64,000 bases of DNA from an uncultured Candidatus Saccharibacteria bacterium (GTDB lineage: Bacteria; Patescibacteriota; Minisyncoccia; Phycocordibacterales; UBA12445): positions 147-64,146 of the forward strand of contig CAZHDO010000004.1 in the NCBI GenBank assembly GCA_964531375.1. Direction: 5' to 3'. The number at the start of each line of letters is the position of its first letter. Within the stretch, counting starts at the first letter, position 1. Positions 122-57,779 of this stretch are shown one piece after another. Below the pieces are notes generated by a model. It did not search any database and was not told the DNA's origin. It was given only the letters and a program-made list of their open reading frames with translations. Position numbers and translations under genes: made by a program.

Positions 122-169
122 AATTGTTGCGGAGACCGGATTCGCACCGGTGCCCCAAGGTTATGAGCC
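122..169. repeat. 48-bp direct repeat (distal att-like copy) duplicating the 3' portion of tRNA-Met at 25155..25202
   Basis: The string attgttgcggagaccggattcgcaccggtgccccaaggttatgagcc occurs at 122..169 and at 25155..25202. The second copy overlaps the T-arm and acceptor 3' half of a tRNA on the minus strand. Confidence 0.8.
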
Positions 170-2389: not shown

Positions 2390-3391
2390 CTAAAGACCAT
2401 AACGCTTTTGAGCAATTAACAAAATTTGTTCAACAAGATATTCAAATGAATATCCGAGGAAACTAGCCATCATGGTAAGAGTATTATTCAAACCATGTGA
2501 ATTAGGACCAATGCCTGGGTTACAATTTGTCTCTAAAAGAAATATTTTTCCATCATCCGACAACCTGTAATCCATCCTCGCATAATCACAGCAGTCAGTC
2601 ATTAAAAATGCGATACGAGTATATTCTTGAAAAAGACGTACTAACTCGTCTGACAAAATCGCTTTTTCCATACCCTCTTTACCACCGCCCCACTTATACT
2701 CATACGAACGTATCCTCTGATAAGGCGGAATGTTTTCACCAAAAACAAACTCAAGAGGTGGAAAAATTTTAATATCTGACCGATTACCGATACAACCAAC
2801 AGAAATTTCTCTTCCCTGGATAAATTCTTCAACCAATACAGGTTGACGATACAACTGCGCGACATACTTAACCCTTTTTGAAAGCTCCTCTATACCCGAA
2901 ACAACACTGTCATAGGTTATGCCAATACTTGCATCTTCATACATCGGCTTAACAATAAGAGGAAACCTCAAATCAACAGCAACAACGTCTTGCTCAGGGT
3001 AAAATACCTGTCGCCTTGGAGTTGGAACGCCATATGTACTCAAAATTAAATTCATTTTCCCCTTATCGCGGGTAAAAATGAAGTTACGAAGAGAAGCACC
3101 TGTAAAGGGAATTTCCAGTGTTTCTAGAATCGCGATATTAAACACCTCACTGGAATTTGACCCACCAAAACCCTCTGCAAGATTAAAAACAATATCAACT
3201 TTTCCTTTTATCGCAGACAGCTTATCAAACAAATCAGGGGTTGATTCCATTAATTCAGCAGAATGACCCTTACTCTGCAAAACGTCCCGAACCAAGGGGG
3301 CAATAATGGTTATCTCTTTTTCACAAATCAGATCTTCTTTATTACCCCTCTTTAATGTCGTAGAAAGATTATACAGCACGATAATGTTCAC
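2390..3391 (-). CDS. ATP-grasp ligase, D-Ala-D-Ala ligase-like
   Basis: LIVKPMYEDASIGI (Ddl-like ATP-binding strand), EEFIQGREISVG, LLETNCNPGIG (E-x-N catalytic loop). Confidence 0.6.
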   Translation of the reverse strand: MNIIVLYNLSTTLKRGNKEDLICEKEITIIAPLVRDVLQSKGHSAELMESTPDLFDKLSAIKGKVDIVFNLAEGFGGSNSSEVFNIAILETLEIPFTGASLRNFIFTRDKGKMNLILSTYGVPTPRRQVFYPEQDVVAVDLRFPLIVKPMYEDASIGITYDSVVSGIEELSKRVKYVAQLYRQPVLVEEFIQGREISVGCIGNRSDIKIFPPLEFVFGENIPPYQRIRSYEYKWGGGKEGMEKAILSDELVRLFQEYTRIAFLMTDCCDYARMDYRLSDDGKIFLLETNCNPGIGPNSHGLNNTLTMMASFLGYSFEYLVEQILLIAQKRYGL

Positions 3392-3523: not shown

Positions 3524-5836
3524 TTACTTAGAATATAATCCCCTCTGCAAAGCATAAAAATTAGTCTGAATAGCTTCTACACCACCCAGCATTTGTTCTG
3601 CGTCTGAGATGGCGTGATATTTAAGGTTAAGTAATATTGGTAGTTGTTCCATACCGAGCTCATCAACACCTTTCTCCTCATACTTATCAAGAACGAAGTT
3701 TAGAAACTCCTTTTGTTTGTCGTCCAAGTCATCCAAGATAGCCACCCTGTTTGAAGCAACTCTATCTTTTCTAGAAATTGGCTGTGTAGCGAACTGAACA
3801 TAAGCAAGAACATCAAAGATATCGCTATCTTCGGCGCCTATTAATTTCTGAAGAACTTCTAACTCATCTCTACCATAACCGAGACCTGCTATCTTCTCCA
3901 AAAAGATCTTCCTAGTTTTTGGATCTGACCAGACCTTTCGCAACTCCTCTTCGTTCCTAAAGAAGTCGGGCATAATGCCAAACATATTCTGCATAAATTC
4001 TTCGACAGAAATCGGTCTTCCGTCTGCGCTCCAAAAAGAAGTGGCTATCATGTGCTGGATCTCTCTCTCCTTTCCATCTCGTAATTTTATTTTTAATTTC
4101 TTCACTGGTTCTTCTAATCCTTCCTGCACTTCGGATGATACTGGTGGATATTCGACGGCGGGTTTCTCTGCTTTTGGTTTTAGTGGATCTTCTGTTATAT
4201 CTGCTATAGGCTCCCCATCCCATTCAGGATCAGCAAAGTGATGATATGCGTCCACAAAATCTATAATAGTGAAATACTCTTTTCCTTCAAATAACCTTGT
4301 CCCCCTTCCGATAATCTGTTTGAACTCAATCATAGAATTAACCGGGCGCATTAAAACAATGTTCCTAATATTTCTTGCATCTACTCCGGTAGAAAGTTTC
4401 TGGGAAGTGGTCAGTATTGTTGGTATTGTTTTTTCGCTATCCTGAAACTCCTTCAAAAATTGTTCACCTCTTGTCCCATCATTTGCTGTAACACGGACAC
4501 AATAAAAAGGATCCTTACTCGTCTTATTTTGGTTTACAAGATCCCGGACAGCAGCGGCGTGCTCTTGCGTAGCACAAAAGACGAGAGTCTTCTCCTTTTG
4601 GTTTATCTCTTGAAGCATGAGCTTAACCCTCTTTTCCTCGCGTGCCTTTATTTCAATAATTCTATTAAAGTCTTCTTCTTTGTAAATTTTACCCTCTTCA
4701 ACTTCGCCCTCTATGATCTGGTCATCGGAAGTATAAACATACTCATCAAGTGTGGTCTGTATTCTTTTAACCCTAAACGGAGTTAAAAAACCATCATTAA
4801 TTCCTTCTTTTAGGGAATAAGTGTAAACAGGTTCTCCAAAATATTTATATGTGTCAACATTGTCTTTTCTTTTTGGTGTAGCAGTCATACCAATCTGAAC
4901 AGCCGGAGAAAAGTATTCTAAAATTGCCCTCCAGTTTGATTCATCATTTGCACCACCTCTATGGCACTCATCCACAAAAATTATATCAAAAAAGTCTTTT
5001 GGGTATTCACCATAGTATGGCGTATTATTCGGCCCACTCATAAATGTCTGAAATATAGTAAAGAAAACACTTCCATTTGTAGGAACACTACCCTTTTTTC
5101 TAATGTCCAATGGATTTATACGAACTAGAGCATCTTCTGGAAACACCGAGAAACCATTAAAGGCTTGATTTGCTAAAATATTTCTATCAGCCAAGAAAAG
5201 AATCCTAGGCCTTCTCACACAGTCCCGCTGTAAACTCCACCTTGTCTGAAAAAGTTTCCATGCAATTTGAAAAGTTATATCTGTTTTGCCTGTACCAGTG
5301 GCGAGTGTGAGAAGTATGCGCTGTTTATTTTCTGCGATAGCTTCTAGTGCTTTATTAACAGCAAGCTCTTTGTAATATCTAACACCAGAATCCCCAAACC
5401 TATTCTCAATAGTAATATCATTAAACTTCTCTCTCCATTCGTTTTGATCTGTATGAGTTCTATTCCAAAGTTCTTCGGGTGTGGGAAATTTGTCCACGTA
5501 TTCTTCATCACCCGTTTTCATATTTATCTGGTAAATTTCTTTACCATTAGTTGCGTAAGTATATTCTATTCTTAATTTTTGGGCATAAACTTTGGCTTGT
5601 GTGACTCCTTCTGTTGAGGGGTCATCTAATTTCTTAGCCTCAATTACAGCCAACTTTTCTTTTTTGTAAGACAAAATATAATCAGCTATCTCTGGCTTAC
5701 CACGGCCTCCACCCATTTGGATCTTTCCATCTGTAATACGAAACTCACGGTAGACTTTTGAGTCTTCAACAACACCCCATCCGCTTTCCTTAAGCTTTGG
5801 ATCTACATATTCAGCTCTTGTTTCTGATTCATTCAT
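3524..5836 (-). CDS. hsdR: type I restriction enzyme R subunit (HsdR)
   Basis: N-terminal HSDR_N-like segment, Walker A LATGTGKT, DEAH-box FVDECHR, helicase C-terminal motifs. Same strand as hsdM and hsdS. Confidence 0.85.
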   Translation of the reverse strand: MNESETRAEYVDPKLKESGWGVVEDSKVYREFRITDGKIQMGGGRGKPEIADYILSYKKEKLAVIEAKKLDDPSTEGVTQAKVYAQKLRIEYTYATNGKEIYQINMKTGDEEYVDKFPTPEELWNRTHTDQNEWREKFNDITIENRFGDSGVRYYKELAVNKALEAIAENKQRILLTLATGTGKTDITFQIAWKLFQTRWSLQRDCVRRPRILFLADRNILANQAFNGFSVFPEDALVRINPLDIRKKGSVPTNGSVFFTIFQTFMSGPNNTPYYGEYPKDFFDIIFVDECHRGGANDESNWRAILEYFSPAVQIGMTATPKRKDNVDTYKYFGEPVYTYSLKEGINDGFLTPFRVKRIQTTLDEYVYTSDDQIIEGEVEEGKIYKEEDFNRIIEIKAREEKRVKLMLQEINQKEKTLVFCATQEHAAAVRDLVNQNKTSKDPFYCVRVTANDGTRGEQFLKEFQDSEKTIPTILTTSQKLSTGVDARNIRNIVLMRPVNSMIEFKQIIGRGTRLFEGKEYFTIIDFVDAYHHFADPEWDGEPIADITEDPLKPKAEKPAVEYPPVSSEVQEGLEEPVKKLKIKLRDGKEREIQHMIATSFWSADGRPISVEEFMQNMFGIMPDFFRNEEELRKVWSDPKTRKIFLEKIAGLGYGRDELEVLQKLIGAEDSDIFDVLAYVQFATQPISRKDRVASNRVAILDDLDDKQKEFLNFVLDKYEEKGVDELGMEQLPILLNLKYHAISDAEQMLGGVEAIQTNFYALQRGLYSK

Positions 5837-5872
5837 AGATTTATTTTATTGTATTTGTTTTAAGAAATATTT

Positions 5873-6415
5873 TTATTTCTTTTGTAATGAATTTGGTATC
5901 TGCTCAAGAATATTCAATAATAGACCAACTGCATTTTCTACACGTTTTAAATCACAGCTTTTGTCCCTTGGTTTACTAAAATGGAAAGTATTTCTAACGT
6001 CATTAATCTCTAAAATCTCTTCCGCCAATTTTTCTTGAATAAGTTTCTTATCTCTAAAAAATACTATAAGTTCTTTTAAACCAATTTGATGTTCCTTCTT
6101 TTCAGCTATTTCTTGAACAGCAATCACTACTGGAAAATCCAATTTTTCTTTATGCCTGTATCCTGGCAACAATTGACTTGGATATTTATATTCAAAATAT
6201 TCAATTTTCTCACCGCGTTCTTTAAAAAAATACAAAAGCACAGCTTCTATTATAGAGATAACATATAAAATTATTACCCTATACACCTCCTCTTGGTATA
6301 GCTTATTTTGTTCATTTTCTTTAGCCTGTTTTGTGTAAAGTACAAAAATAAACTCCATAGAGTCTTCTAAGATTTTACGAAGTCCGTCGTCTTTAATAAA
6401 CTCAAGGTCAGACAT
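5873..6415 (-). CDS. hypothetical protein embedded in the type I R-M operon (candidate Abi/HEPN-like accessory)
   Basis: ORF between hsdR and hsdS. Contains NDVRNTFHF (R-x3-H), which is one residue short of the HEPN R-x4-6-H motif. Confidence 0.4.
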   Translation of the reverse strand: MSDLEFIKDDGLRKILEDSMEFIFVLYTKQAKENEQNKLYQEEVYRVIILYVISIIEAVLLYFFKERGEKIEYFEYKYPSQLLPGYRHKEKLDFPVVIAVQEIAEKKEHQIGLKELIVFFRDKKLIQEKLAEEILEINDVRNTFHFSKPRDKSCDLKRVENAVGLLLNILEQIPNSLQKK

Positions 6416-6421
6416 ATTTTT

Positions 6422-6595
6422 TTAATCAGACTTCTTTTGAGTCATCTTCAATAACTTCGAAAGGGACGGCAGACCTTCCTTTTTTAAAACAGTATGAAGC
6501 TGGGTATCTGATCTATAGCCCAAATCAACACCATATTTTTTCTCTATAGTTTTAACTAAAGTATCTCCCCTCTTTTTAGATATTAGCTTACTCAT
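6422..6595 (-). CDS. small hypothetical protein (57 aa), Lys-rich
   Basis: Hand-translated ORF MSKLISKKRGDTLVKTIEKKYGVDLGYRSDTQLHTVLKKEGLPSLSKLLKMTQKKSD in the hsdS-hsdR gap; not in the provided track. Confidence 0.3.
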   Translation of the reverse strand: MSKLISKKRGDTLVKTIEKKYGVDLGYRSDTQLHTVLKKEGLPSLSKLLKMTQKKSD

Positions 6596-6614
6596 AAATC
6601 AAGTTTAACATATT

Positions 6615-7706
6615 TTAAATTTCACCGCCAAAAGCTTTTTTAAGGACAGATTTTTTGAGCTCATCTAGATCAGCAAGTTTTTTGCTGTAAATTTCTTCTA
6701 GTTTTTTGGTTTCAACAGAGAGATCTTCTAATTTTTTAACAATTTCCTTTTGTTCAGAAATAGATTTTGGAAAAATGATTTCAATTGTTTGAAGTTCAGA
6801 TTTCACAAGACTTGGTATAGTTGTTCCTCTATTCATACTTTTGAAATCAATACCTAAGCATAAATAATAGACAAACCTTTTATCGATATCATTTTCATTT
6901 TTTGGGTAAAAACCAAATGCTGTATCTACATTCCAAAAACGTTCATCAATATAAATTGGTTTACTGATATTTCCCTTTCTCCCGATAATTGTTGTCCCTG
7001 CTTCACAAATGAAATCAGTTGCATAACCCATTACATTTCCAGCACTACCCAAAATTTTGTATTCACCCTTTTCAGATAATACTGCTTGTTGATTTTTACC
7101 GTTCCTAATTTCAATCATTTCCCCCAACTCCCTTTCCTCCCAACTATCCCCCGGATTCGCAAAAATACTCTGTAAATAAGATTCAAAAAGTTCGTGGGAG
7201 TTTTTTATATTTTTCTCTGCGTTTTCTTTCGCCTTAGCTGTCTTCTCAAAAACTTCGTCTAGGATTTTCACGATTCGGTTTTGTTCTGGGAGAGGTGGAA
7301 GGGGGATTTCGAAATTCATCATCTCTTTCATGTTCGCTCGTGGCATCCTTGCCCCAGTGCAAGTATCATTTATTTTTTCCACTATCTCGCCAGAGGTTAT
7401 CCAGTAGAATAAGTATTTCTTATCCAAAGCATTATCAGTTTTTATAGGAAATATTTCAGTTGAGCAATGACCGTCAAAATTCGGCAATAAGACCTTGTTA
7501 AGATAAGGTCTAAGTCTTCCATATAGTAGATACTCTTTATTAAATTTAAAAGTCACACTTTTTACCTTACGTGGTTTTATTGAGCCTATAAATTTACCTG
7601 TATTAGACTCAATGTCTTCCATCCCAATATATGGCAAAGACTCACCGTTATTGGGAGATTTATCAAAACTAGAAACATCGCCAAGTTTTTTTATTTGCCA
7701 AATCAT
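6615..7706 (-). CDS. hsdS: type I restriction-modification specificity subunit (HsdS)
   Basis: Conserved central repeat motif LPPLPEQNRIVKILDEVF. Two target-recognition-domain architecture. Confidence 0.85.
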   Translation of the reverse strand: MIWQIKKLGDVSSFDKSPNNGESLPYIGMEDIESNTGKFIGSIKPRKVKSVTFKFNKEYLLYGRLRPYLNKVLLPNFDGHCSTEIFPIKTDNALDKKYLFYWITSGEIVEKINDTCTGARMPRANMKEMMNFEIPLPPLPEQNRIVKILDEVFEKTAKAKENAEKNIKNSHELFESYLQSIFANPGDSWEERELGEMIEIRNGKNQQAVLSEKGEYKILGSAGNVMGYATDFICEAGTTIIGRKGNISKPIYIDERFWNVDTAFGFYPKNENDIDKRFVYYLCLGIDFKSMNRGTTIPSLVKSELQTIEIIFPKSISEQKEIVKKLEDLSVETKKLEEIYSKKLADLDELKKSVLKKAFGGEI

Positions 7707-7710
7707 GATA

Positions 7711-8295
7711 TTAAAAGAATTTTTGAAGTAATGGGGATAAAACCTGCCAAACGGTTAAAGAATTTGCAGCGACCTCTACCATCTTGGAAATACCCTGCAT
7801 TAGATTTTTAACAACATTCTTTTTACGATTCTCTGGTTTTTGGAACAATTCTTTAGTAATAATATCCAGACTTTCAAGGATTTCATCTTGTTGGTCTTTT
7901 ATCAAGCAGGGTTCAGTCAAGATTTTTTCAGAAAAACTTTTTATATTATCTGCCAATTCTTTTTGGGATGAAGAATATAGGGAATCAATAGTCTGGTTTA
8001 AATTTTGAATATTACCAGAATTCAAAATACCAATTTGGCTATTACTTATGGCTATGTGGTTGTTGTTTATTGTTCCGCCAGAGACCAATACTGGTCGCTT
8101 TACTGGATATCTTGGACCCATACTTATCCCGAACATAGAATCAATACTATCCATGGAGTAGTTCATCTCTTCTCTTAACATCTGAATATTTTTTTCATTC
8201 ATCTCTCGTACTGTTGCGTAGCAGTTCAGACATAGTAGCACCTTTTGATCACCTATCTCATACATTGCGTTGTTACTGCATTGGTAACATTTCAT
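7711..8295 (-). CDS. hypothetical zinc-ribbon protein inserted between hsdM and hsdS
   Basis: N-terminal C4 ribbon CYQCSN...CLNCYA then a predicted helical region. 4-nt overlap with the hsdM stop and 5 nt from the hsdS start. Confidence 0.45.
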   Translation of the reverse strand: MKCYQCSNNAMYEIGDQKVLLCLNCYATVREMNEKNIQMLREEMNYSMDSIDSMFGISMGPRYPVKRPVLVSGGTINNNHIAISNSQIGILNSGNIQNLNQTIDSLYSSSQKELADNIKSFSEKILTEPCLIKDQQDEILESLDIITKELFQKPENRKKNVVKNLMQGISKMVEVAANSLTVWQVLSPLLQKFF

Positions 8296-9764
8296 AAATA
8301 TTTCTGAATATCCTTTAAAATTTTTCCACCCTCGAAGTCTAGTTCTTCTATCTCTTTCAAAATATCCTTCGGTTCTCTCAACACAGCTCCCCCTCCTTTC
8401 TTTGGATTCTTCACAGAAAGGTCAAAAGTTTCCTGGTTAATACCTTTCATATCCACACTCCAGGAGTTTTCTGAATCAGCTTTGGTCTTTTGCAGCTCAA
8501 CGAATTCCGCAAGATCCTTTTCATTAAGAGGATTGGTCTTTCCTAGGTTTCTATCAAGATTAAGCTGGTAATACCAGATCTTTTTCGTAGGAGATCCTTT
8601 TTCAAAAAACAAGACGACGGTCTTTACACCAGCGCCTTGAAATGTACCCCCGGGGAGATCAAGTATTGTGTGTAAGTTACAGGATTCAAGGAGAAGTTTC
8701 CTTAAAGAGACTGAGGCATTATCGGTGTTTGAAAGAAAGGTATTCTTAATAACAATACCAGCTCGTCCCCCTGCTTTGAGAATCTTTATAAAATGCTGTA
8801 AAAAGAGGAATGCAGTTTCTCCTGTCTTAATGGGGAAGTTTTGCTGAACTTCCGCTCTCTCCTTACCACCAAAAGGTGGGTTGGCCAGCGCGACAGAATA
8901 GCGGTCTTTCTCTTGAATGTCGGAGAGGTTTTCTGAGAGGGTATTTGTATGAATAATATGGGGAGCCTCTATGCCGTGGAGGATCATATTCATTATTCCA
9001 ATGATGTAGGCCAAGGACTTCTTCTCCTTTCCGTAGAAGGTACTCTTCTGAAGAGTCTCCATGTCTTTGGTAGAGAGGTTCTTATTCTCTTTCAAATAAT
9101 CAAATGCTTCTACCAAGAAGCCGGCAGAGCCCACGGCGCCATCATAGATCTTATCTCCAATCTTAGGGGCTACAACTTTGATTATGGTTTTTATAAGAGG
9201 GCGTGGCGTGTAATACTCCCCACCGTTTCTGCCAGCATTACCCATGTTCTTGATCTTCACCTCATAGAGATGAGAGAGTTCGTGTTTTTCGGCATGAGAG
9301 CGGAAGCGCATACCGTCTATGATATTTATTATCTCTCTTAGGGCGTATCCGCTTTGAATCCTGTTCTTTATCTCACTGAAAATTTCCCCGATCTTATATT
9401 CAATAGTGTCCGGACTCACTGCGTCGGTCTTAAACTTTTTTAGATATTGAAATAGACCGTTGTCTTTTGGGTCTAAGCGATTAACAAATTCCAATAGGTC
9501 GTCTCCTGTTAAGGCCTTGTTGTGGTCTAGTTTACCATCCTTGCCCTTTGGAGAGGCCCAAGTGTCCCAGTGATACTTAGGAGAGATAATATGCGTATAT
9601 TCCTTACCAGAAAGCTTAGCGGCTAAAGCCCTGTCCTTTTCGAGGTCATCCAAATATCTCAAGAATAAAACCCAGGAAGTTTGCTCAACATAATCAAGCT
9701 CACTGGAGGCACCAGCATCCTTATGGAGAATGTCGTCTATATTTTTGAATGATTGTTCGAACAT
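8292..9764 (-). CDS. hsdM: type I R-M N6-adenine DNA methyltransferase (HsdM)
   Basis: NPPFG catalytic motif (LANPPFGGKERAE); AdoMet-binding region DGAVGSAGFL; HsdM N-domain. Confidence 0.9.
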   Translation of the reverse strand: MFEQSFKNIDDILHKDAGASSELDYVEQTSWVLFLRYLDDLEKDRALAAKLSGKEYTHIISPKYHWDTWASPKGKDGKLDHNKALTGDDLLEFVNRLDPKDNGLFQYLKKFKTDAVSPDTIEYKIGEIFSEIKNRIQSGYALREIINIIDGMRFRSHAEKHELSHLYEVKIKNMGNAGRNGGEYYTPRPLIKTIIKVVAPKIGDKIYDGAVGSAGFLVEAFDYLKENKNLSTKDMETLQKSTFYGKEKKSLAYIIGIMNMILHGIEAPHIIHTNTLSENLSDIQEKDRYSVALANPPFGGKERAEVQQNFPIKTGETAFLFLQHFIKILKAGGRAGIVIKNTFLSNTDNASVSLRKLLLESCNLHTILDLPGGTFQGAGVKTVVLFFEKGSPTKKIWYYQLNLDRNLGKTNPLNEKDLAEFVELQKTKADSENSWSVDMKGINQETFDLSVKNPKKGGGAVLREPKDILKEIEELDFEGGKILKDIQKYL

Positions 9765-9824
9765 GTGGATTTGTTAAAAATTAATTGTTTTTCAACATAC
9801 AATAAATGGGTGAAAGATAAAATA

Positions 9825-11924
9825 TTACTCACCTCCCCCTTGATTCTTTTCAAGCGCTTGTCTAACAAGACTTATGACATCTTCTATTTGTTCAGAAGAA
9901 GAAAGTTTAACCTGAACATCACCATTGCCCCATGTTCCAACACCTGTAACATCTCGACAAATACCCTTAGGATCATTAATCTCTGCGAAAGTTATGTTGA
10001 GCGATAAGGCGAGACACTGTCTCTGAGGAACAATATCTACAAAATTTGTCGTGGTCTTATAAGCAATGTAGCGACGCTTCACCTCCTCTCTAACAGAAGA
10101 GTCTAAATTTAAAATTTCTTTACGGATCTCATAAAACAAATCTAAAAGTGGACCTTGCAGATATTCACTATGTACTTCTAAATTATAAACACGTTCTCGC
10201 TTGTTTTCTTTCTTCTCCTTCTTGTATTTTTGTAGAACCTCAGTAGCCACATCAGGGAATGACCAAACATTTATTGCTACCTTTGTAATATTTTGAGCTC
10301 GCTTCTTGATCTCCTGTTCGTCCCAGTGATCCAATTCTGCGAGACTACGATTTAACATTATTGGGCTATTAGCAAAACCCCCCTTCATGTCTCTTTTCTC
10401 TAAGAATTTCTTATCACTCAATTCTGAATTGTATCCGGTAAGTGTGAGATTTCCGATCGTATGCAAATACTGATCCTGAATTAGCTTCCAATTATCACCC
10501 AATTCTTTTTGCCATGCTTCTGACAGATTCTCGTTCTGGGGTAAAATATGTTCTATTGTGTAACTCTCGACTGAAACTATTTCCTTTCTATCGTGATTTT
10601 CTAGTTTTCTTAATAGATAGTTCCTGTTTCGAAGATTGTAAATATCCTTAATAACAAACTCGCGACGGAACTCTTCGTTGTCTGGAAAACGCTGATATGA
10701 ATCCTTATTCAAAAGAGCGACCTTAACACTGTCTACATAATTCTGCTTATCTATTTCTCTCGAGAGTATGGCAAAGGTCTTATTGAGAGAGTTAGTGGGA
10801 ATACCACATATTGATCGGCGGAATACATAACTCTCGACCATCTTCAATATTTCTACAAAACCCTCTCGACTTAGCACATTAGAATAAAAATCATGATAGA
10901 CGGAAAGCAAAAAAGGATAAGAAACATCAACTTTTAGAGAATCGATATCGCCCAAAATATTATTTATTTCTTTATCCTCCTCTTTTAAGAAAGATAGCTT
11001 AATAAAATATTTCGAATACATAAAAATATCGGCAACAACCTCCTGAATTGTTTTCCTTCCGGTGTCTTTCTGTACATAATTCTTGAAGCTACCATAAACT
11101 TCTTTTATATTGGGAATAAGACCAGTCTTTAAAGTAAGATAATCGCGCATGAAATTATCAAACAGATCAGTGTATTCAGTATTCCCAAATCCCTGCTCCA
11201 TTGGATACCAATATTGACGGTAAAGATTATCTTGCTCCTCTTTCGGGAGAGACATCAAAACGAAGTTTCTTATAAGATCGGCTTGAGATAAGTCTAGACC
11301 AGTAGAATTAAGACTCTCAAAGATTAATTGTGGATTATCATGTTGGTGATCGAGCGAAATATCAACGATAAGAAGTTTCTGCAATCCTTGATAAATGGCT
11401 GTGGCAGAGATATTGGCTGTTTTAATCTTGTTCTCAAACCAGTTATAATTCTCGGCAATTCGGATGGAGCTTTTATCAAGTAGCCCTTTTCTTTCAATTA
11501 GACGGGTAAATGATTCTTTGTCTGTCTGAGTCAATAAAAGTTTATACCTATCTTCACCCTCTTCTTGTCCATTAAATAAATAATAATTTTCAATCTTAGT
11601 GGCTATGCTCTGGTGTTCCGGTATTTCCGACTCTCTTAATGTTTTAGAAAGAGCCGTAAGGAGTAATGAAATTGTAGTTAGGCGCTGTTGTCCGTCTATA
11701 ACCAAGAGCTGTGGCACACTCGCTACTTGATATAATCCCTTTTCAATATATACAATAGATCCAACAAAATGACCGCTCACGGTTGGTTCTTGAACTCTTA
11801 AGATATCTTTCCATAACTGTTCACACTGTTTAATGGTCCAGCTATATGGTCGCTGGTATATAGGTATAACGAACTGTGTCGGTTTTTGAAGAAATTTAAG
11901 TAAGTTTGTTTCTACTGCTTTCAT
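9825..11924 (-). CDS. DUF262/DUF1524 (GmrSD-like) nuclease, putative type IV restriction or defence protein
   Basis: N-terminal DUF262 signature IPIYQRPYSW and DGQQRLTT; C-terminal His-Me/HNH-like SYTIEHILPQN. Confidence 0.7.
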   Translation of the reverse strand: MKAVETNLLKFLQKPTQFVIPIYQRPYSWTIKQCEQLWKDILRVQEPTVSGHFVGSIVYIEKGLYQVASVPQLLVIDGQQRLTTISLLLTALSKTLRESEIPEHQSIATKIENYYLFNGQEEGEDRYKLLLTQTDKESFTRLIERKGLLDKSSIRIAENYNWFENKIKTANISATAIYQGLQKLLIVDISLDHQHDNPQLIFESLNSTGLDLSQADLIRNFVLMSLPKEEQDNLYRQYWYPMEQGFGNTEYTDLFDNFMRDYLTLKTGLIPNIKEVYGSFKNYVQKDTGRKTIQEVVADIFMYSKYFIKLSFLKEEDKEINNILGDIDSLKVDVSYPFLLSVYHDFYSNVLSREGFVEILKMVESYVFRRSICGIPTNSLNKTFAILSREIDKQNYVDSVKVALLNKDSYQRFPDNEEFRREFVIKDIYNLRNRNYLLRKLENHDRKEIVSVESYTIEHILPQNENLSEAWQKELGDNWKLIQDQYLHTIGNLTLTGYNSELSDKKFLEKRDMKGGFANSPIMLNRSLAELDHWDEQEIKKRAQNITKVAINVWSFPDVATEVLQKYKKEKKENKRERVYNLEVHSEYLQGPLLDLFYEIRKEILNLDSSVREEVKRRYIAYKTTTNFVDIVPQRQCLALSLNITFAEINDPKGICRDVTGVGTWGNGDVQVKLSSSEQIEDVISLVRQALEKNQGGGE

Positions 11925-15873: not shown

Positions 15874-17148
15874 TTATATTCCAAACCAAGATCTAAGGCG
15901 AAACCACCAGATATTCTTATTTACAACCGACTTTGATGGCCTATTGGTAGACGTGGCAAATTCATCAGTAGAGGTCACCCCTACTGATATTAAAGGGTTG
16001 AGCTTAAGAGTATCTTTAATTATTTCTTTTGGTGATACTTTAAGTTGGGTCTCAATTTTTTGGATTGGCATTTCTGGAGTTTCAGTCTTTTTTTCAACCT
16101 TAGGAGTCTCTGTGGAGGCTTTGTTGTTAATTTCATTTTGTTTATCAATCCTATTCTGTAGGTCTTGAATTTGATTCATAAGAACAGAGATTTGAGCTGC
16201 GACATCATTTTTCTTTTGTGTTGGTTGTATGGGCTGTACTTGTAAAGGTTGTATTTGTGGAGATTCTATCTGCGGGGGTGTTATCTGCATTGAACTTGTC
16301 AGAGGGTTAGTGGTTTTAGTTTTTAGCCCCCCTGATCTTTGCGCAGAAAGACTCTTTAGCTGAGGAATTGGGCTCTTGATTGTCCTTATAAACGAGGACA
16401 TCATTGATGGTGGGTCAAAAGAATTAAACCAATACTCTAGATTTTCTTTCGGGGATACAATTTCTGGGCGACCAAAAGGTTTGCCATAATACACAATATC
16501 ACCTTCGCTTAATTTTAATGATTTAATCTTTTGATTGTAATTAATTTTTTGAATTCTAACAGAATCAGAGTCACTTTGGTTTGTAAGAGGAAATAAAAAA
16601 TCATCGCTATTATAAATTGTCCATGCCCAACTATCTACATATTTTCCAATCAAATTTTCACACCAACCAAAATCCTCATACAGGGTGTTCTTCACAGAAA
16701 CCAAGGAGGTTCTATCTCCGCTTAATACCTGTTTGGTGCCCCACCCTGAAACATTCTTTGCAGAAAAACAAAGGGTTTTTAAATTTTCTACTGTAGGATT
16801 TTGAAGAAAAGCATCAATAATATTCAGCGAGCCAATCTCAATTTTAACCATATCAACAAACTCACTCTGTGGAATGTTTTCGTCAATGATTAAGGTTGCT
16901 GGTTTGAGTAGTGAGGCATTTCGTGAATTAGAGTCAAAAATAATTTCTTTTTCATCAGCTTTAGAGGTAGAAAAAAGGTCATTAACAGTATCTACCGCGT
17001 TAGACCACAACCCTGCGTGTACGGAAGAGGGGCATTGTAAAAATAAAAGGGTCGTAATGATAAGAAATGATAATTTATTTAGTTTGTTTTTCATATTTTT
17101 TATTCTTCCAAACAAAAAGCCCACCACATGAGTTAGTGACAAAGTCAC
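15874..17148 (-). CDS. secreted hypothetical protein with P/Q-rich linker
   Basis: Signal-peptide-like N-terminus; PQIESPQIQPLQVQPIQPTQ low-complexity linker. Confidence 0.4.
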   Translation of the reverse strand: MTLSLTHVVGFLFGRIKNMKNKLNKLSFLIITTLLFLQCPSSVHAGLWSNAVDTVNDLFSTSKADEKEIIFDSNSRNASLLKPATLIIDENIPQSEFVDMVKIEIGSLNIIDAFLQNPTVENLKTLCFSAKNVSGWGTKQVLSGDRTSLVSVKNTLYEDFGWCENLIGKYVDSWAWTIYNSDDFLFPLTNQSDSDSVRIQKINYNQKIKSLKLSEGDIVYYGKPFGRPEIVSPKENLEYWFNSFDPPSMMSSFIRTIKSPIPQLKSLSAQRSGGLKTKTTNPLTSSMQITPPQIESPQIQPLQVQPIQPTQKKNDVAAQISVLMNQIQDLQNRIDKQNEINNKASTETPKVEKKTETPEMPIQKIETQLKVSPKEIIKDTLKLNPLISVGVTSTDEFATSTNRPSKSVVNKNIWWFRLRSWFGI

Positions 17149-17369
17149 TCATACAAGTTTCCCTGTACGGCAGAACATGCAACCCCATATGATGGGTTCT
17201 TTATGCATGTTCTGACTCTTTTCACCATGCCTGACACTGTGCCAAGTTTAGGCTACTTATTATTAAATTGTCTGCCTCTCTAAAATACCACAAAAACAAG
17301 AAAATATCCAAAAAAATAAACAGTAACCCTGATATTGGATTACTGTTTATTTTTTCAATTTATTATATT

Positions 17370-17609
17370 TTATTCCTCAAGAGAGCGAATGTACGCTTCT
17401 GCTTCACTGCGAGTTAGGTCCTCAATATGATTCAAACATTGCTGGGTTGTAGAAATGTCGTCAAAATGCGAAAAAATCAAATCATGCAACCTCCTTCTCT
17501 GGCCTGGTGTAATAGTTTCCTCTTCATCAAATGGACGTTCAGAAAAATCACCGAAGTTAGCAGAATATTCCCTCGGATGATTATAGTCAGTTATAAAATT
17601 GTTTAACAT
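17370..17609 (-). CDS. hypothetical small acidic protein
   Basis: ORF only. Confidence 0.3.
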   Translation of the reverse strand: MLNNFITDYNHPREYSANFGDFSERPFDEEETITPGQRRRLHDLIFSHFDDISTTQQCLNHIEDLTRSEAEAYIRSLEE

Positions 17610-17659
17610 TGTTATAAATTTAAGTTATTAAAAAGACCAGCGAGTTGCTGGCCATGTAT

Positions 17660-18361
17660 CTATCTCAAACCAATAAAACTGGAGATTTGTTCTGAGGCTT
17701 GCTCACGGGTCATCTCTTCTAATTCAGCGAGCCAATTTTTTTTCTCATCATCCCCATGGACTCTTCGTTTTACCAATGATGTTAATAATTCCTTTTGACG
17801 TGCAGTGATCATCTTAGATTCTTTTGAAGGTTTTTCTTCTGTAACAGTGGGGAGAATTGGGAGATCTTCTAAGTCTTGGGTAAAAATTTCAGAAAGATTT
17901 GTGGATCTAATAACCCCATCTATAAATGCTGATTTTAACGACATCTTAATGGTCTTATTTGGATCATTGTCGTTCTTTGCAAGTGTACTAGCTCCTCGTC
18001 CCTGGCCCATGACACTATTACCGCGGTATAGATTGCATACATAGGCAATGAGACCAGGGACACTCTTAAATGCTTCCATTGTCTCATTATCGCGAGAGAA
18101 AGTAGCTGTCAGTGAATAAATACTGGCAAGTTTTTCTGCGCCACCCTTGGCCAGCGACTTTTTGCCTTTGATTACATAATAATCATGGTTCTCTTTGAGT
18201 GTTGGCAAAACTTGGGAAATAAAATAGCTTTTGCGGAGTAGCATGTCGTCTACCCCCTGCCTGAAGCTTTGCATGGCGGTGGTATCTCCCAAGCGGATAG
18301 CACCCTTCTCGATTGTTTGTACGTTGTTCATTGTTTTTAAATTATCTTCTAGTAATAACAA
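17660..18361 (-). CDS. hypothetical protein (island cargo; TTG start in the track, an internal ATG 10 codons in is likelier)
   Basis: ORF only; no motif recognised. Confidence 0.35.
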   Translation of the reverse strand: MLLLEDNLKTMNNVQTIEKGAIRLGDTTAMQSFRQGVDDMLLRKSYFISQVLPTLKENHDYYVIKGKKSLAKGGAEKLASIYSLTATFSRDNETMEAFKSVPGLIAYVCNLYRGNSVMGQGRGASTLAKNDNDPNKTIKMSLKSAFIDGVIRSTNLSEIFTQDLEDLPILPTVTEEKPSKESKMITARQKELLTSLVKRRVHGDDEKKNWLAELEEMTREQASEQISSFIGLR

Positions 18362-18518
18362 CAGAACCCTCTAGGTAATCCACATCGATTTTTTGGCCAA
18401 CACGGAAACCAAATCTATAGAGAATACTATTAGCAATGCGGATCATAGGTTTTAATTCTTTGTTTGAAACAAGACCATATTTACCAGTCGCATAATTAAC
18501 GATCATTTTTCTTTTCAT
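18342..18518 (-). CDS. SymE-like toxin (AbrB/SpoVT-fold, type I TA toxin family) candidate, 58 aa
   Basis: Hand translation MKRKMIVNYATGKYGLVSNKELKPMIRIANSILYRFGFRVGQKIDVDYLEGSVVITRR. It aligns by eye to E. coli SymE at V.YA..Y...P.I.....L...GF..G..VDV...EG..V.T. Confidence 0.45.
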   Translation of the reverse strand: MKRKMIVNYATGKYGLVSNKELKPMIRIANSILYRFGFRVGQKIDVDYLEGSVVITRR

Positions 18519-18524
18519 GTTTGA

Positions 18525-18830
18525 TTAATTAGAAGACAACTTCTCAACCTGAGGGTAATAAAAAAGATGGATAGTCTTCGGATATTTCTTAATGACCACA
18601 CCCTGATCGTTTTTCTTTTCTACAATCGTAATAGACCTCAAAGACTTCTCGCCTTTCTTAACGACGTAACCCAAGCTTCTCCAATCTCGAAAAGTTCTAC
18701 AATTACTATATGGATCGTATTGCTTGGCACTTTCTGCTCCATAGCGTTCGGATATCTGTTGAAAAATTAGCTCCCTAGTTATTTCCGAGCCTCGATAATT
18801 TGTTTTAACCTTATCTTCTGACATAACCAA
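18525..18830 (-). CDS. ArdC N-terminal-domain-like (DUF1738) ssDNA-binding protein, short
   Basis: CRTFRDWRSLGYVVKKGEKSL resembles the ArdC_N core motif TFKQW..LGR.V+KGEK. Confidence 0.45.
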   Translation of the reverse strand: MVMSEDKVKTNYRGSEITRELIFQQISERYGAESAKQYDPYSNCRTFRDWRSLGYVVKKGEKSLRSITIVEKKNDQGVVIKKYPKTIHLFYYPQVEKLSSN

Positions 18831-19222
18831 TAATTAACACTAATAAAAAGCACCAGGACTAGTGGTGCTAAGCATGAGAAAGTTTTTATTTAAACTATCT
18901 CACTTGAAAAGTATTTAAAGGTTGATCTAACTTAAATACCCAAAAGATAGGATTTCGTATGAGCCATAAGAAATAGAAAGCAATAGCAATGTGGAAGCAA
19001 ATAAATAGTATGCAAATAAGGTGTGCAAGCTCCTAGTCCTTAGGACTAGGGCCAAGGGGGGGGTTGTTCGATTTGGGTCCCCTGGTGTAAACAAGATACT
19101 ATCCGTTAGGTACTCACCCGTTCCCATGCCTACTTTCCCAAAACTTTCACCCTTAAAAAATCAACGAGCTCTAAATTTTTTTCTAAAAATTTTCAAAATG
19201 GGCCTTATGTTAAGATTTAGAC

Positions 19223-23775: not shown

Positions 23776-23994
23776 ATGGATGTATCGAGGGACAATACAG
23801 AAAGACTGCTGAATAGAAATGAGGTAATGAAAATGCTCAACATATCAAAAGCTGGATTTTATAGACTAGTCTATAAAAGAGAGATCCCCTTCTATAAAGT
23901 TGGCGGTGGCTTGAGATTTTCTGTGGAGGATATTCTTTCTTATCTGAAAAACAATAGAGTTCCCTCGATACATGAATATAAAAAACAAATATGA
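23776..23994 (+). CDS. excisionase/HTH_17-family DNA-binding protein
   Basis: LNISKAGFYRLVYKREIPFYKVGGGLRFSVEDILSYL is a typical helix-turn-helix excisionase domain. 4-nt overlap with the integrase start. Confidence 0.55.
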   Translation: MDVSRDNTERLLNRNEVMKMLNISKAGFYRLVYKREIPFYKVGGGLRFSVEDILSYLKNNRVPSIHEYKKQI

Positions 23995-25133
23995 GCGTTA
24001 GAAAAATAAGAAATAAGTACTGGGTGGACTTTACCCACGACCGTACCAGGTACAGAAGAATGAGTCCTGAAAATTCCAGAGCCGGAGCTTCCGCTTTTGA
24101 AGTGGCGCTTAGGCACAAGCTTGCGATAGGAGAAAGCATAGATAAAGTATCCTGCAAAAATGAAAAGGAAAAGACTTTCAAAGATTTCTCTCTTGAATGG
24201 TTTAATACTTATGTCAAAAACAATAATAAAGCGGCTGAGATAAAAAGAAAAGAGAGTGCTTTGAATAGACACCTTATCCCCTTTTTTGGAAAAAAAGAGA
24301 TAAACAAAATAACTGGAAGAGATGTGGAAAATTTCAAGGCTCTGAAAAGGAACGAAGGGCTATCTAATAAATCGACAAATAATTACCTTGATGTATTCAG
24401 TAAATGTTTAGCAAGTGCAAACGAGTGGTTTGGCCTGGACAATTTGCCAAAAATGAAGAAATTGAAACTCCCTCCACTGAAAAACCTTTTTCTTTCAACA
24501 GAAGAATGCAAGAAACTCCTGGAAAACACTGAAGGAATTTGGCGTGAAATTATACTTACGGCTATGACGACAGGAATGAGGCAGGGAGAATTAAAGGCGC
24601 TCGACTGGCCAGATGTCGATCTTGAAAACAAAGAGATAACGGTCAGGTACTCTTGGTGCGAGTATTCACAAGACAAAGTAGCCCCCAAAAGCAACAAGGA
24701 GAGAAAGATACCGATAACTAATGAGCTTTGTTGGGAATTAATAAAAAGAAGACAGAAGACAGGAATAGTATTCCCCGACATACTTGGCAAAAGGTTTGAT
24801 AAACAAAAATTAAATACGAAGATAGCTAGAGGATGTAAAAAGGCCGGCTTGGAAGTAATAACCTGCCACATACTGCGACACACCTATGCTTCACACTTAG
24901 CACTGGCGGGAGTTTCTATACAGAAAATTCAAGCACTGCTGGGCCACGCAAACATACAGATAACAATGCGTTACGCTCATTTGACCCCCTCCAGTTTAAG
25001 AGAAGCAGTAAATATGTTAGAGCCGCTAGTCACTCCTTCTTTAATTTTAAGGCAACCGGCAGGCAACGCGGTAAAAAAAAGCGCCGTTGCATTTTGGGGC
25101 GAAACGGCACCTTTTCCAAATAAGCTTATCTGA
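23991..25133 (+). CDS. int: tyrosine-type site-specific integrase (phage integrase family)
   Basis: Catalytic residues TGMRQGE (Arg), HILRHTYASHLA (His-x-x-Arg), GHANIQITMRYAHL (Tyr). The gene ends 27 nt from the tRNA 3' end. Confidence 0.85.
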   Translation: MSVRKIRNKYWVDFTHDRTRYRRMSPENSRAGASAFEVALRHKLAIGESIDKVSCKNEKEKTFKDFSLEWFNTYVKNNNKAAEIKRKESALNRHLIPFFGKKEINKITGRDVENFKALKRNEGLSNKSTNNYLDVFSKCLASANEWFGLDNLPKMKKLKLPPLKNLFLSTEECKKLLENTEGIWREIILTAMTTGMRQGELKALDWPDVDLENKEITVRYSWCEYSQDKVAPKSNKERKIPITNELCWELIKRRQKTGIVFPDILGKRFDKQKLNTKIARGCKKAGLEVITCHILRHTYASHLALAGVSIQKIQALLGHANIQITMRYAHLTPSSLREAVNMLEPLVTPSLILRQPAGNAVKKSAVAFWGETAPFPNKLI

Positions 25134-25154: not shown

Positions 25155-25202
25155 AATTGTTGCGGAGACCGGATTCGCACCGGTGCCCCAAGGTTATGAG
25201 CC
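25155..25202. repeat. 48-bp direct repeat (att core within tRNA-Met), partner of 122..169
   Basis: Identical to 122..169. Confidence 0.8.
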
Positions 25203-25230
25203 TTGTGAGGTACTACTCCTCCACTCCGCT
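25160..25230 (-). tRNA. tRNA-Met(CAU)-type (initiator, elongator Met or Ile2 not resolved); no encoded CCA
   Basis: Hand fold of the minus strand: acceptor AGCGGAG/CTCCGCA with a 1-72 A.A mismatch; D-stem GAGG/CCTC; anticodon stem CAAGG/CCTTG; loop CTCATAA (anticodon CAT); T-stem ACCGG/CCGGT; T-loop TGCGAAT. Confidence 0.7.
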
Positions 25231-55832: not shown

Positions 55833-56089
55833 AATTAAAATTATATTACATTCAATCGATTCTTAAAACCGTTTGATTACTTAATAAAATTAGGAACAAA
55901 GAGTGGGATTCGGTCACGGATATTTTTTTGCAGAAAAATTCCTCGAAGTCCGTCAGTTGCGACGGACACCTGTAGACGGCCCACACAGCTCCTTTTCTTG
56001 CAGAAAGGGACCCGCTTCCGTCTTTCGAAGCCCACCTTCTCGCGCAAAATACAGTCATAAAACGCTTTCTCATTTTATTCATTATTTTA

Positions 56090-56176
56090 CGGAGAGAGTG
56101 GGATTCGAACCCACGGTTCCGATAAAGGAACGACAGTTTAGTAAACTGTTGATATAAACCACTCATCCATCTCTCC
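56090..56176 (-). tRNA. type II (long variable arm) tRNA, Ser-like; anticodon reads ACU in my fold (unusual)
   Basis: Minus strand: acceptor GGAGAGA/TCTCTCC; D-stem GATG/TATC; anticodon stem ACAGT/ACTGT; loop TTACTAA; long variable arm CGTTCCTTTATCGGAACCG; T-arm GTGGG-TTCGAAT-CCCAC. Confidence 0.7.
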
Positions 56177-56249
56177 AGATGATTTAGACAATATACAATA
56201 TATTAAAAAATAATTCTAGAAAAAACGAGGGTAAATAATTTAGTAAAAT

Positions 56250-57090: not shown

Positions 57091-57365
57091 TAATTTCGGA
57101 GCCGGATGGAATTTCTCTCCTTACAGGAGCAGTATCACAGATATTTTTCTGCAGAAAAATTCTTCGACCCCAACTCACTCGTCTTCACTCGCTCCGTCTT
57201 TGAAATGCTACCTGTCGTCGCATTTCAACCCCGATGGATTTTCTCTACGTCCTACGGACTATAAAAAATGCTCATCGGGGCTTCGAATCCATCTCGCAAG
57301 ACATTTAGTATGTCTTGCTCGGCTCCATATTTAAAAAAACCGCAATATCGCAGTTTTTTTAAATA

Positions 57366-57452
57366 CGGAGCCGGATGGATTCGAACCATCGAGGGCTTTT
57401 ACACCCTGCCTCTTTAGCAAAGAGGTACGTTAGACCACTCTGACACGGCTCC
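57366..57452 (-). tRNA. tRNA-Ser(GCU), type II
   Basis: Minus strand: acceptor GGAGCCG/CGGCTCC; anticodon stem CCTCT/AGAGG; loop TTGCTAA (anticodon GCT); long variable arm; T-arm GATGG-TTCGAAT-CCATC. Confidence 0.8.
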
Positions 57453-57779
57453 ACTTTATTTGATTATTAACTTAAAACAGCATTCTGGCAAAGAGGTACG
57501 TTAGGTCACGGATATTTTTCTGCAGAAAAATTCCGCTATCCTTACAGGATCAGTACACCTTTTGGACTTTTTCATTCGCCTTGCTCTGAAAAATTCTCAA
57601 GAAGGTTCTTCGCCTTTCGCTTTCGCGGCTCAGCCCGACTCGTTCACCATTACTCTCGCCCTTAATTTGCTTCAAGTATTCGCAAATTAACACTCTGACA
57701 CGGCTCCACTTTATTTGGTTATTTTCCTCAAAAACCTTGACTAGTATAGACTAAAACGTCCTTATCTACAAGCTTATGG

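Follow-up and report, generated by a model that had tools for sequence, protein, structure and literature searches.

A minimal SymE-like protein encoded in a compact operon of integrative elements from Candidate Phyla Radiation bacteria

Introduction

The SymE protein of Escherichia coli (YjiW) has an AbrB/MazE-type core and is encoded by a solitary LexA-controlled gene that is accompanied by an antisense RNA, SymR. In the description of Kawano et al. (2007), the SymE family is almost wholly restricted to proteobacteria, and its genes are associated with restriction-modification (R-M) systems and mobile islands. According to the same study, SymE genes located in operons are always accompanied by a regulator of the cHTH, RHH or YefM type, and the solitary ones are presumably controlled by small RNAs (sRNAs). 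PMC11894785 reports, after Thompson et al. (2022), that the E. coli protein has no RNase activity and is a non-specific DNA-binding and nucleoid-condensing protein, in which the MazE-like domain binds DNA and the C-terminal helices are predicted to drive tetramerisation; it also states that overexpressed SymE condenses the nucleoid and kills cells via DNA binding. The current RefSeq name is ‘nucleoid-associated protein SymE’. Here, we describe a SymE-like protein of 58 amino acids (aa) encoded in a 64,000-nucleotide (nt) stretch of contig CAZHDO010000004.1 of an uncultured Candidatus Saccharibacteria bacterium (assembly GCA_964531375.1), hereafter the window. Its gene is the optional second gene of a tightly packed operon found in integrative elements of the ultra-small bacteria of the Candidate Phyla Radiation (CPR).

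The product of the first gene of the operon resembles another described protein, ArdC, which is known from R388 and pSa, is borne by conjugative plasmids and combines an ArdcN domain with a metalloprotease domain. Literature linking SymE and ArdC was searched for and none was found.

The SymE-Like Gene and Its Family

Translation of the minus-strand open reading frame (ORF) gives MKRKMIVNYATGKYGLVSNKELKPMIRIANSILYRFGFRVGQKIDVDYLEGSVVITRR, which is exactly the translation proposed in an earlier first-pass annotation of the window. That annotation took the gene to be unannotated, but both it and its upstream neighbour had already been called by NCBI as ‘hypothetical protein’ (WCO84_01920, identical to the 58-aa protein, and WCO84_01915), and therefore neither is a new call. 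Chance ORFs of about 58 codons are frequent in a window of 36% G+C, so that conservation is the proper test. In the closest relative, locus L014 of a Saccharibacteria metagenome-assembled genome (related loci carry an L number throughout), the SymE-like protein is 71% identical and the synonymous sites are saturated. The nonsynonymous divergence (dN) from L014 is 0.22 for the SymE-like gene, the lowest among the four operon genes, compared with 0.54, 0.47 and 0.62 for its neighbours. Given this low dN beside saturated synonymous divergence, the 58-codon ORF is more than a chance ORF; it is a real and strongly constrained gene.

As a single sequence, the 58-aa protein stays below the cut-offs of the curated SymE models, with E 0.003 and 18 bits for Pfam SymE_toxin (PF08845; cut-off 29) and E 0.005 and 16.6 bits for NCBIfam SymE (PRK13605; cut-off 132). 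In BLASTP, it shares 34% identity with E. coli SymE across 35 residues. When 1.8 billion representatives were searched exhaustively with HMMER, a family of 42 proteins emerged, nearly all of them 50–110 aa long, with the consensus MKR.MTV.YAPG..KPMIRIaN.fL...GF.VG.KIeV.Y..G.I.I.K. The SymE_toxin profile matched 34 of 39 family members (best E 4e-10) and the MazE_antitoxin profile matched 2 of 39, while the NCBIfam SymE model matched 19 members. A further search added 82 clusters, many of which carry a precomputed PF08845 match, and NCBI gives a Paceibacterota relative with 43% identity the name ‘SymE family type I addiction module toxin’. When the family profile was compared with E. coli K-12 SymE by hhalign, residues 3–58 aligned with SymE residues 21–77 at 92% probability (E 6e-7). 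Viral relatives of the family were not found in IMG/VR by a pattern scan.

The predicted structure agrees with this assignment. An AlphaFold2 (AF2) model built from a 70-sequence alignment reached a predicted local distance difference test score (pLDDT) of 90, and its top Foldseek neighbours were pSSVi C56, MazE, Sso7c4-like proteins, pSSVx C68, AbrB-N, SpoVT and VapB. Almost all of these neighbours belong to the SpoVT/AbrB superfamily, with probability up to 0.97 and E values of 0.2–6, which are as weak as expected for a chain of 58 residues. Structural matches in BFVD included phage SpoVT/AbrB proteins and proteins named ‘Toxin SymE’, with probability up to 0.99. The predicted fold thus agrees with that of solved members of the AbrB/MazE/SpoVT swapped-hairpin type.

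Judged by these profile comparisons, the SymE resemblance is weak for the single sequence and solid at the family level, which is also how the SymE_toxin search suggested in the first-pass annotation turned out. The SymE-family and AbrB-fold homology claimed there is upheld. On the same basis, the 58-aa protein belongs, as a minimal member, to the SymE branch of the AbrB/MazE fold and is not a classical MazE or AbrB protein, because 34 members match the SymE model against 2 for MazE and because the SymE-type N-terminal ‘TV.YA’ strand is aligned.

The comparison with E. coli SymE shows both likeness and difference. The AbrB/MazE-type core is aligned over the full 58 residues, including the ‘TV.YA’ strand, the motif ‘P.I.l....L...GF..G..vdV’ is common to both proteins, and both genes lie in a mobile region with type I and type IV restriction genes. 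In contrast to E. coli SymE, the 58-aa protein is half the size, has neither the N-terminal tail nor the C-terminal helical region, comes from CPR bacteria rather than proteobacteria, and is encoded in the middle of a packed operon rather than by a solitary gene. The classical AbrB, MazE and SpoVT proteins, together with pSSVi C56, pSSVx C68 and Sso7c4, have the same predicted fold and size; unlike classical AbrB/MazE systems, the locus has no cognate toxin gene, and the sequence is nearer to the SymE branch. C56 and C68 are small DNA-binding proteins of archaeal integrative elements.

The Operon in CPR Loci

On the minus strand, the features follow one another as ArdC-N-like gene, SymE-like gene, a 223-aa gene (p200, for the protein of about 200 aa in this position), a hairpin, a 79-aa gene, a second hairpin, an RNA of the LOOT family and a 424-aa ORF (Table 1). 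The SymE-like gene lies 6 nt past the stop codon of the ArdC-N-like gene and 10 nt ahead of the ATG of the 223-aa gene.

The trio of ArdC-N-like, SymE-like and p200 genes recurs in at least eight independent CPR loci. It is found in the window, L014 (Saccharibacteria), L007/L016 (Paceibacterota), L012, L017 (Kaiserbacteria), L018 (Parcubacteria), L026, L032 and the cut locus L033, and all five matches in a genome collection also came from CPR bacteria. Between L014 and the window, the ArdC-N-like proteins are 50% identical and the p200 proteins 57% identical, and a homologue of the 79-aa protein is present as well. The gaps within the trio are 12 nt at most or are replaced by 4-nt start/stop overlaps; the sole exception is L007, in which 47 nt separate the first gene from the second. 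In four of eight related loci (L012, L014, L018 and L032), the start of the SymE-like gene overlaps the upstream stop codon.

In at least seven other loci (the L001 group, L021, L022, L023, L024, L031 and L034), the ArdC-N-like gene is followed directly by the p200 gene and there is no SymE-like gene, and therefore the neighbours are independent of it. Two subtypes of p200 exist, and both are found with and without the SymE-like gene. The SymE-like gene is thus the optional second gene of a conserved, tightly packed and translationally coupled operon in CPR integrative elements. Absence of the gene from related islands, which the first-pass annotation had named as evidence against its reading, was found in part: about half of the related operons lack it. 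The association in one operon with an ArdC-N-like protein, the distribution in CPR bacteria and the linkage to LOOT RNA appear to be undescribed in the literature searched.

The cassette was repeatedly observed beside restriction or modification genes. A GmrSD gene follows it directly in L007 (5799-7895), an N6_N4 methylase and an SNF2/ResIII helicase precede it in L012 (1-3247), and hsd and GmrSD genes occupy 3524-11924 in the window.

Table 1. Features of the window around the SymE-like gene, and LOOT RNAs near related cassettes
Feature	Coordinates	Strand	Basis or remark
ArdC-N-like protein, putative single-stranded DNA (ssDNA)-binding, 99 aa, operon gene 1	18525..18824	minus	Pfam ArdcN match; NCBI WCO84_01915
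SymE-like AbrB/MazE-fold protein, 58 aa	18342..18518	minus	ORF translation; net charge about +8; NCBI WCO84_01920
p200, 223 aa, N-domain phrog_10048	17660..18331	minus	constant partner of ArdC-N-like gene
79-aa protein, only the C-terminal motif of p200, last operon gene	17370..17609	minus	p200 profile match, E 1.2e-6
Terminator-like hairpin, directly upstream of first operon gene	18849..18869	minus	sequence scan
Terminator-like hairpin, between the 223-aa and 79-aa genes	17635..17653	minus	sequence scan
LOOT RNA (Rfam RF03000)	17135..17254	minus	70.6 bits, gathering score 46.4; just downstream of operon, at 5' end of 424-aa ORF
Left att repeat, 48 bp	122..169	plus	exact match to 25155-25202
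Right att repeat, 3' part of tRNA-Met (25159-25230, minus)	25155..25202	plus	adjoins integrase gene 23991-25133
LOOT RNA, L001	10038-10160
LOOT RNA, L017	4066-4185
LOOT RNA, L018	2176-2289
LOOT RNA, L023	5500-5621
LOOT RNA, L024	5559-5675
LOOT RNA, L026	1902-2023
LOOT RNA, L028	3116-3237
LOOT RNA, L031	1580-1710
LOOT RNA, L032	3316-3436

Proteins Encoded Beside the SymE-Like Gene

The ORF directly upstream of the SymE-like gene was first read as 101 aa from a TTG at 18830. The ORF itself is real, and the ATG at 18824 is the better start, in agreement with the 99-aa protein called by NCBI. The ArdcN profile (PF08401) matches this protein with E 1.5e-4 and 22.4-22.5 bits, which does not reach the gathering score of 22.6, and the match covers 34 residues and 34 of 123 profile positions. 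Six of its seven homologues also match ArdcN at E 0.1 or better. When plasmids were searched by tblastn, the matching genes were annotated as ‘ArdC-like ssDNA-binding domain-containing protein’, DUF3560 or zincin-like metallopeptidase, and 39 of the 55 matches lay on conjugative plasmids. Among annotated proteins, its closest analogue is encoded on a Peribacillus plasmid: a stand-alone ‘ArdC-like ssDNA-binding domain-containing protein’ of 105 aa, with a lambda-exonuclease gene about 2 kb off. A 16-sequence profile of the 99-aa family aligned weakly (E 0.2) with residues 72-128 of R388 ArdC (6i89), the segment that corresponds to the core ‘tf..W..lG..VkkGEk...vF...Qv’ of the 99-aa protein.

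All of these matches to ArdC are at or below threshold. In contrast to ArdC, the 99-aa protein has no metalloprotease domain and its N-terminal half is unrelated; and in contrast to the conjugative plasmids that bear ArdC, the element shows no detectable conjugation genes within the window. That the protein is remotely related to the second half of the ArdC N-domain is plausible from the alignments, and the ArdC-N-like core noticed in the first-pass annotation finds support. The role of an anti-restriction helper, also put forward there, would be one by analogy with ArdC.

A homologue of p200 stands directly after the ArdC-N-like or the SymE-like gene in all cassette loci. The phrog that covers its N-domain is one of unknown function, and the 223-aa protein has no match in Pfam, PDB or PADLOC. 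Its C-terminus carries a helical motif, I-T-x-x-Q-K-x-x-L...T-x-x-x-A-S. The N-domain of p200 has relatives in temperate phages, among them ORF36 of Geobacillus virus E2 (L037, 4935-5735) and a protein of Eggerthella phage PMBT5 (L038, 3881-4741). ORF36 of E2 is flanked by a Mu Gam-like end-protection gene and by DnaA-like and DnaB-like genes for replication, which is where recombination functions are typically encoded, and it matches ExoX-like_C (PF20600) where the C-terminal motif would sit. In L007, there is a weak match to DUF3072.

A single-strand annealing protein of the Rad52/Redβ/RecT type was considered for p200, from the resemblance of the motif and from the Gam-like neighbour in E2. 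This idea is unsupported by tests that are themselves insensitive: hhalign comparisons with lambda Bet and Rac RecT were negative (probability 0.1%), profile searches of PDB gave no match, and a single-sequence AF2 model had a pLDDT of 38.

L014 and L018 encode homologues of the 79-aa protein, of 71 and 80 aa respectively, and in L015 a 63-aa version (3164-3355) follows the SymE-like gene. A helical motif of about 45 residues (I-T-x-x-Q-K-x-x-L ... W ... T-x-x-E-A-S-x-x-I) is seen both at the C-terminus of p200 and in adjoining stand-alone small proteins.

The Integrative Element and Its Regulatory Features

The operon lies inside a 25-kb element integrated in tRNA-Met and bounded by a 48-bp exact direct repeat. 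The element encodes a tyrosine integrase, an HTH_17 excisionase-like protein, a primase-polymerase (prim-pol) and an AAA_25/DnaB-like helicase, together with type I hsdR, hsdS and hsdM (3524-9764), GmrSD (9825-11924), a C39 peptidase, an S49 peptidase, a D-Ala-D-Ala-ligase-like protein and several proteins of unknown function. The earlier placement of the gene in a mobile island with restriction genes is thereby confirmed. No PADLOC match assigned the cassette or its neighbours to a defence system.

In the window, and likewise in 9 of 18 related loci scanned, a LOOT RNA lies no more than about 3 kb from the cassette, with or without the SymE-like gene. It often stands directly 5' of a large ORF of unknown function, such as the 424-aa ORF of the window and a 562-aa ORF in L001, and its presence may be characteristic of this family of CPR integrative elements.

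A conserved non-coding block of about 50 nt (GGGGWCCCAAAT..AACAACCCCCCC, 19045-19100, minus strand) was observed some 230 nt ahead of the operon, and only the window and L014 (2505-2550) have it in common. This block and the hairpin in front of the first gene might function as an sRNA, as a leader or as an operator. The 390-nt upstream region was also scanned for shared operators or repeats, and the idea was rejected, as only weak AT-rich palindromes and the block common with L014 were present.

Elsewhere in the window, ARAGORN calls a tRNA-Ser with the anticodon ACT at 56089-56177 on the minus strand (56.7 bits with the Rfam tRNA model). A normal tRNA-Ser(GCT) stands 1.2 kb away at 57365-57453, and a serine tRNA with A34 is unusual for bacteria.

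Possible Functions of the SymE-Like Protein

We favour, with moderate confidence, the reading that the 58-aa protein is a basic, dimeric and nucleic-acid-binding accessory or regulatory subunit, which is optional in a DNA-handling operon of CPR integrative elements. The protein consists of little more than a swapped-hairpin domain of about 55 residues. From its fold it would dimerise and bind nucleic acid, and it would act with its operon partners on the DNA of the element itself, probably without toxicity. The module would be one for DNA handling (replication, recombination or establishment), and the protein may either be an accessory subunit of it that binds DNA or control its expression as an autoregulator.

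Several points weigh against this reading. SymE-like genes are also found away from the operon, in contexts that are phage-like or rich in recombinases (L006, L010, L011 and L015), and thus have no strict need for the operon partners. The notion of a DNA-handling module draws on a weak ArdC-N match, on the setting with primase-helicase and integrase genes and on a phage homologue beside a Gam-like gene. The killing of cells by overexpressed E. coli SymE, as stated in PMC11894785, would fit a toxic or host-directed role. Finally, the plus strand at 18480-18560 has no sigma-70-like site, the nearest being at 18805-18834, and this negative is one for an E. coli-type consensus, which may not apply to CPR bacteria.

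The main rival is that the protein is an effector directed at the host. A basic AbrB-fold dimer would coat and condense the DNA of the host and stop its growth upon induction or loss of the element, and it would be held in check by operon-level control or by a neighbour instead of an RNA antitoxin. Besides the behaviour of overexpressed E. coli SymE, the very basic nature of the 58-aa protein, the occurrence of family members as single genes in phage-like and recombinase-rich contexts and the commonness of AbrB-fold proteins in phages are all in its favour. We regard it as rather unlikely. The C-terminal helices that are predicted to confer tetramer formation and bridging on SymE are absent from the 58-aa protein, the gene is co-translated with housekeeping-type functions of the element, and its dispensability in about half of the equivalent operons means that the neighbours are not dedicated antidotes.

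Another possibility is the type I toxin-antitoxin system of the first-pass annotation, in which translation of a SymE-type toxin would be blocked by a cis-antisense RNA from the plus strand, analogous to SymR and opposite the 5' end of the gene, so as to stabilise the island. The SymE models are indeed the best profile matches of the protein, the relative with 43% identity bears the name of a type I toxin, hsd and GmrSD lie on the island as such genes do around E. coli symE, and SymE genes in general go with R-M systems and mobile islands (Kawano et al., 2007). The arrangement of the gene argues otherwise. With spacings of 6 and 10 nt, and with start/stop overlaps in L012, L014, L018 and L032, the SymE-like gene is not a transcription or translation unit of its own with a regulatory 5' untranslated region, and no room is left for a promoter of its own. 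On the plus strand, the interval lacking a promoter-like site lies within a region (18470-18590) that folds no better than its shuffled versions (z +0.47), and Rfam gave no antisense-RNA match at the gene. Nor does the operon contain an antitoxin-type gene of the cHTH, RHH or YefM kind, as would be expected of an operonic SymE toxin from the survey of Kawano et al. (2007). As a regulator, a promoter and a stable structure on the antisense strand were all looked for and not found, control of a type I toxin by antisense RNA is improbable, and a stand-alone addiction module is unsupported. The RNase-toxin view of SymE itself has also been revised, according to PMC11894785.

The reading as a type II antitoxin that neutralises a toxin encoded by the downstream p200 gene, in the manner of MazE, VapB or PemI, was rejected as very improbable. 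In its favour, a small AbrB-fold protein whose gene directly precedes that of a partner, with overlapping stop and start codons, is as a rule an antitoxin, and MazE and VapB are among the Foldseek neighbours. Against it, the supposed toxin gene occurs without the SymE-like gene in at least seven loci, Pfam, NCBIfam and PADLOC assign its product to no toxin family, and within the family matches to SymE models far outnumber those to MazE models.

Conclusion

The finding is a modest one, since the SymE protein family and its fold are already known and the function is what we infer. What it defines is a recurrent four-gene cassette with a LOOT RNA in integrative elements of Patescibacteria, a group whose mobile elements, and their movement without obvious conjugation genes, are poorly understood. 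Going beyond the role of the 58-aa protein as a DNA-binding subunit, we tentatively suggest that the ArdC-N-like, SymE-like, p200 and 79-aa proteins, together with LOOT RNA, may form an undescribed module peculiar to CPR integrative elements for DNA entry and establishment or for recombination, in which a minimal SymE domain would work on DNA alongside an ssDNA-binding protein.

SymE-family genes are routinely annotated by automatic means as ‘type I addiction module toxins’, and the minimal member described here stands in a quite different setting. This setting fits the recent revision of SymE to a DNA-binding protein and calls for caution in transferring the toxin label. If the proposed CPR module is real, it would provide the first functional context for the orphan LOOT RNA and for the short SymE branch.

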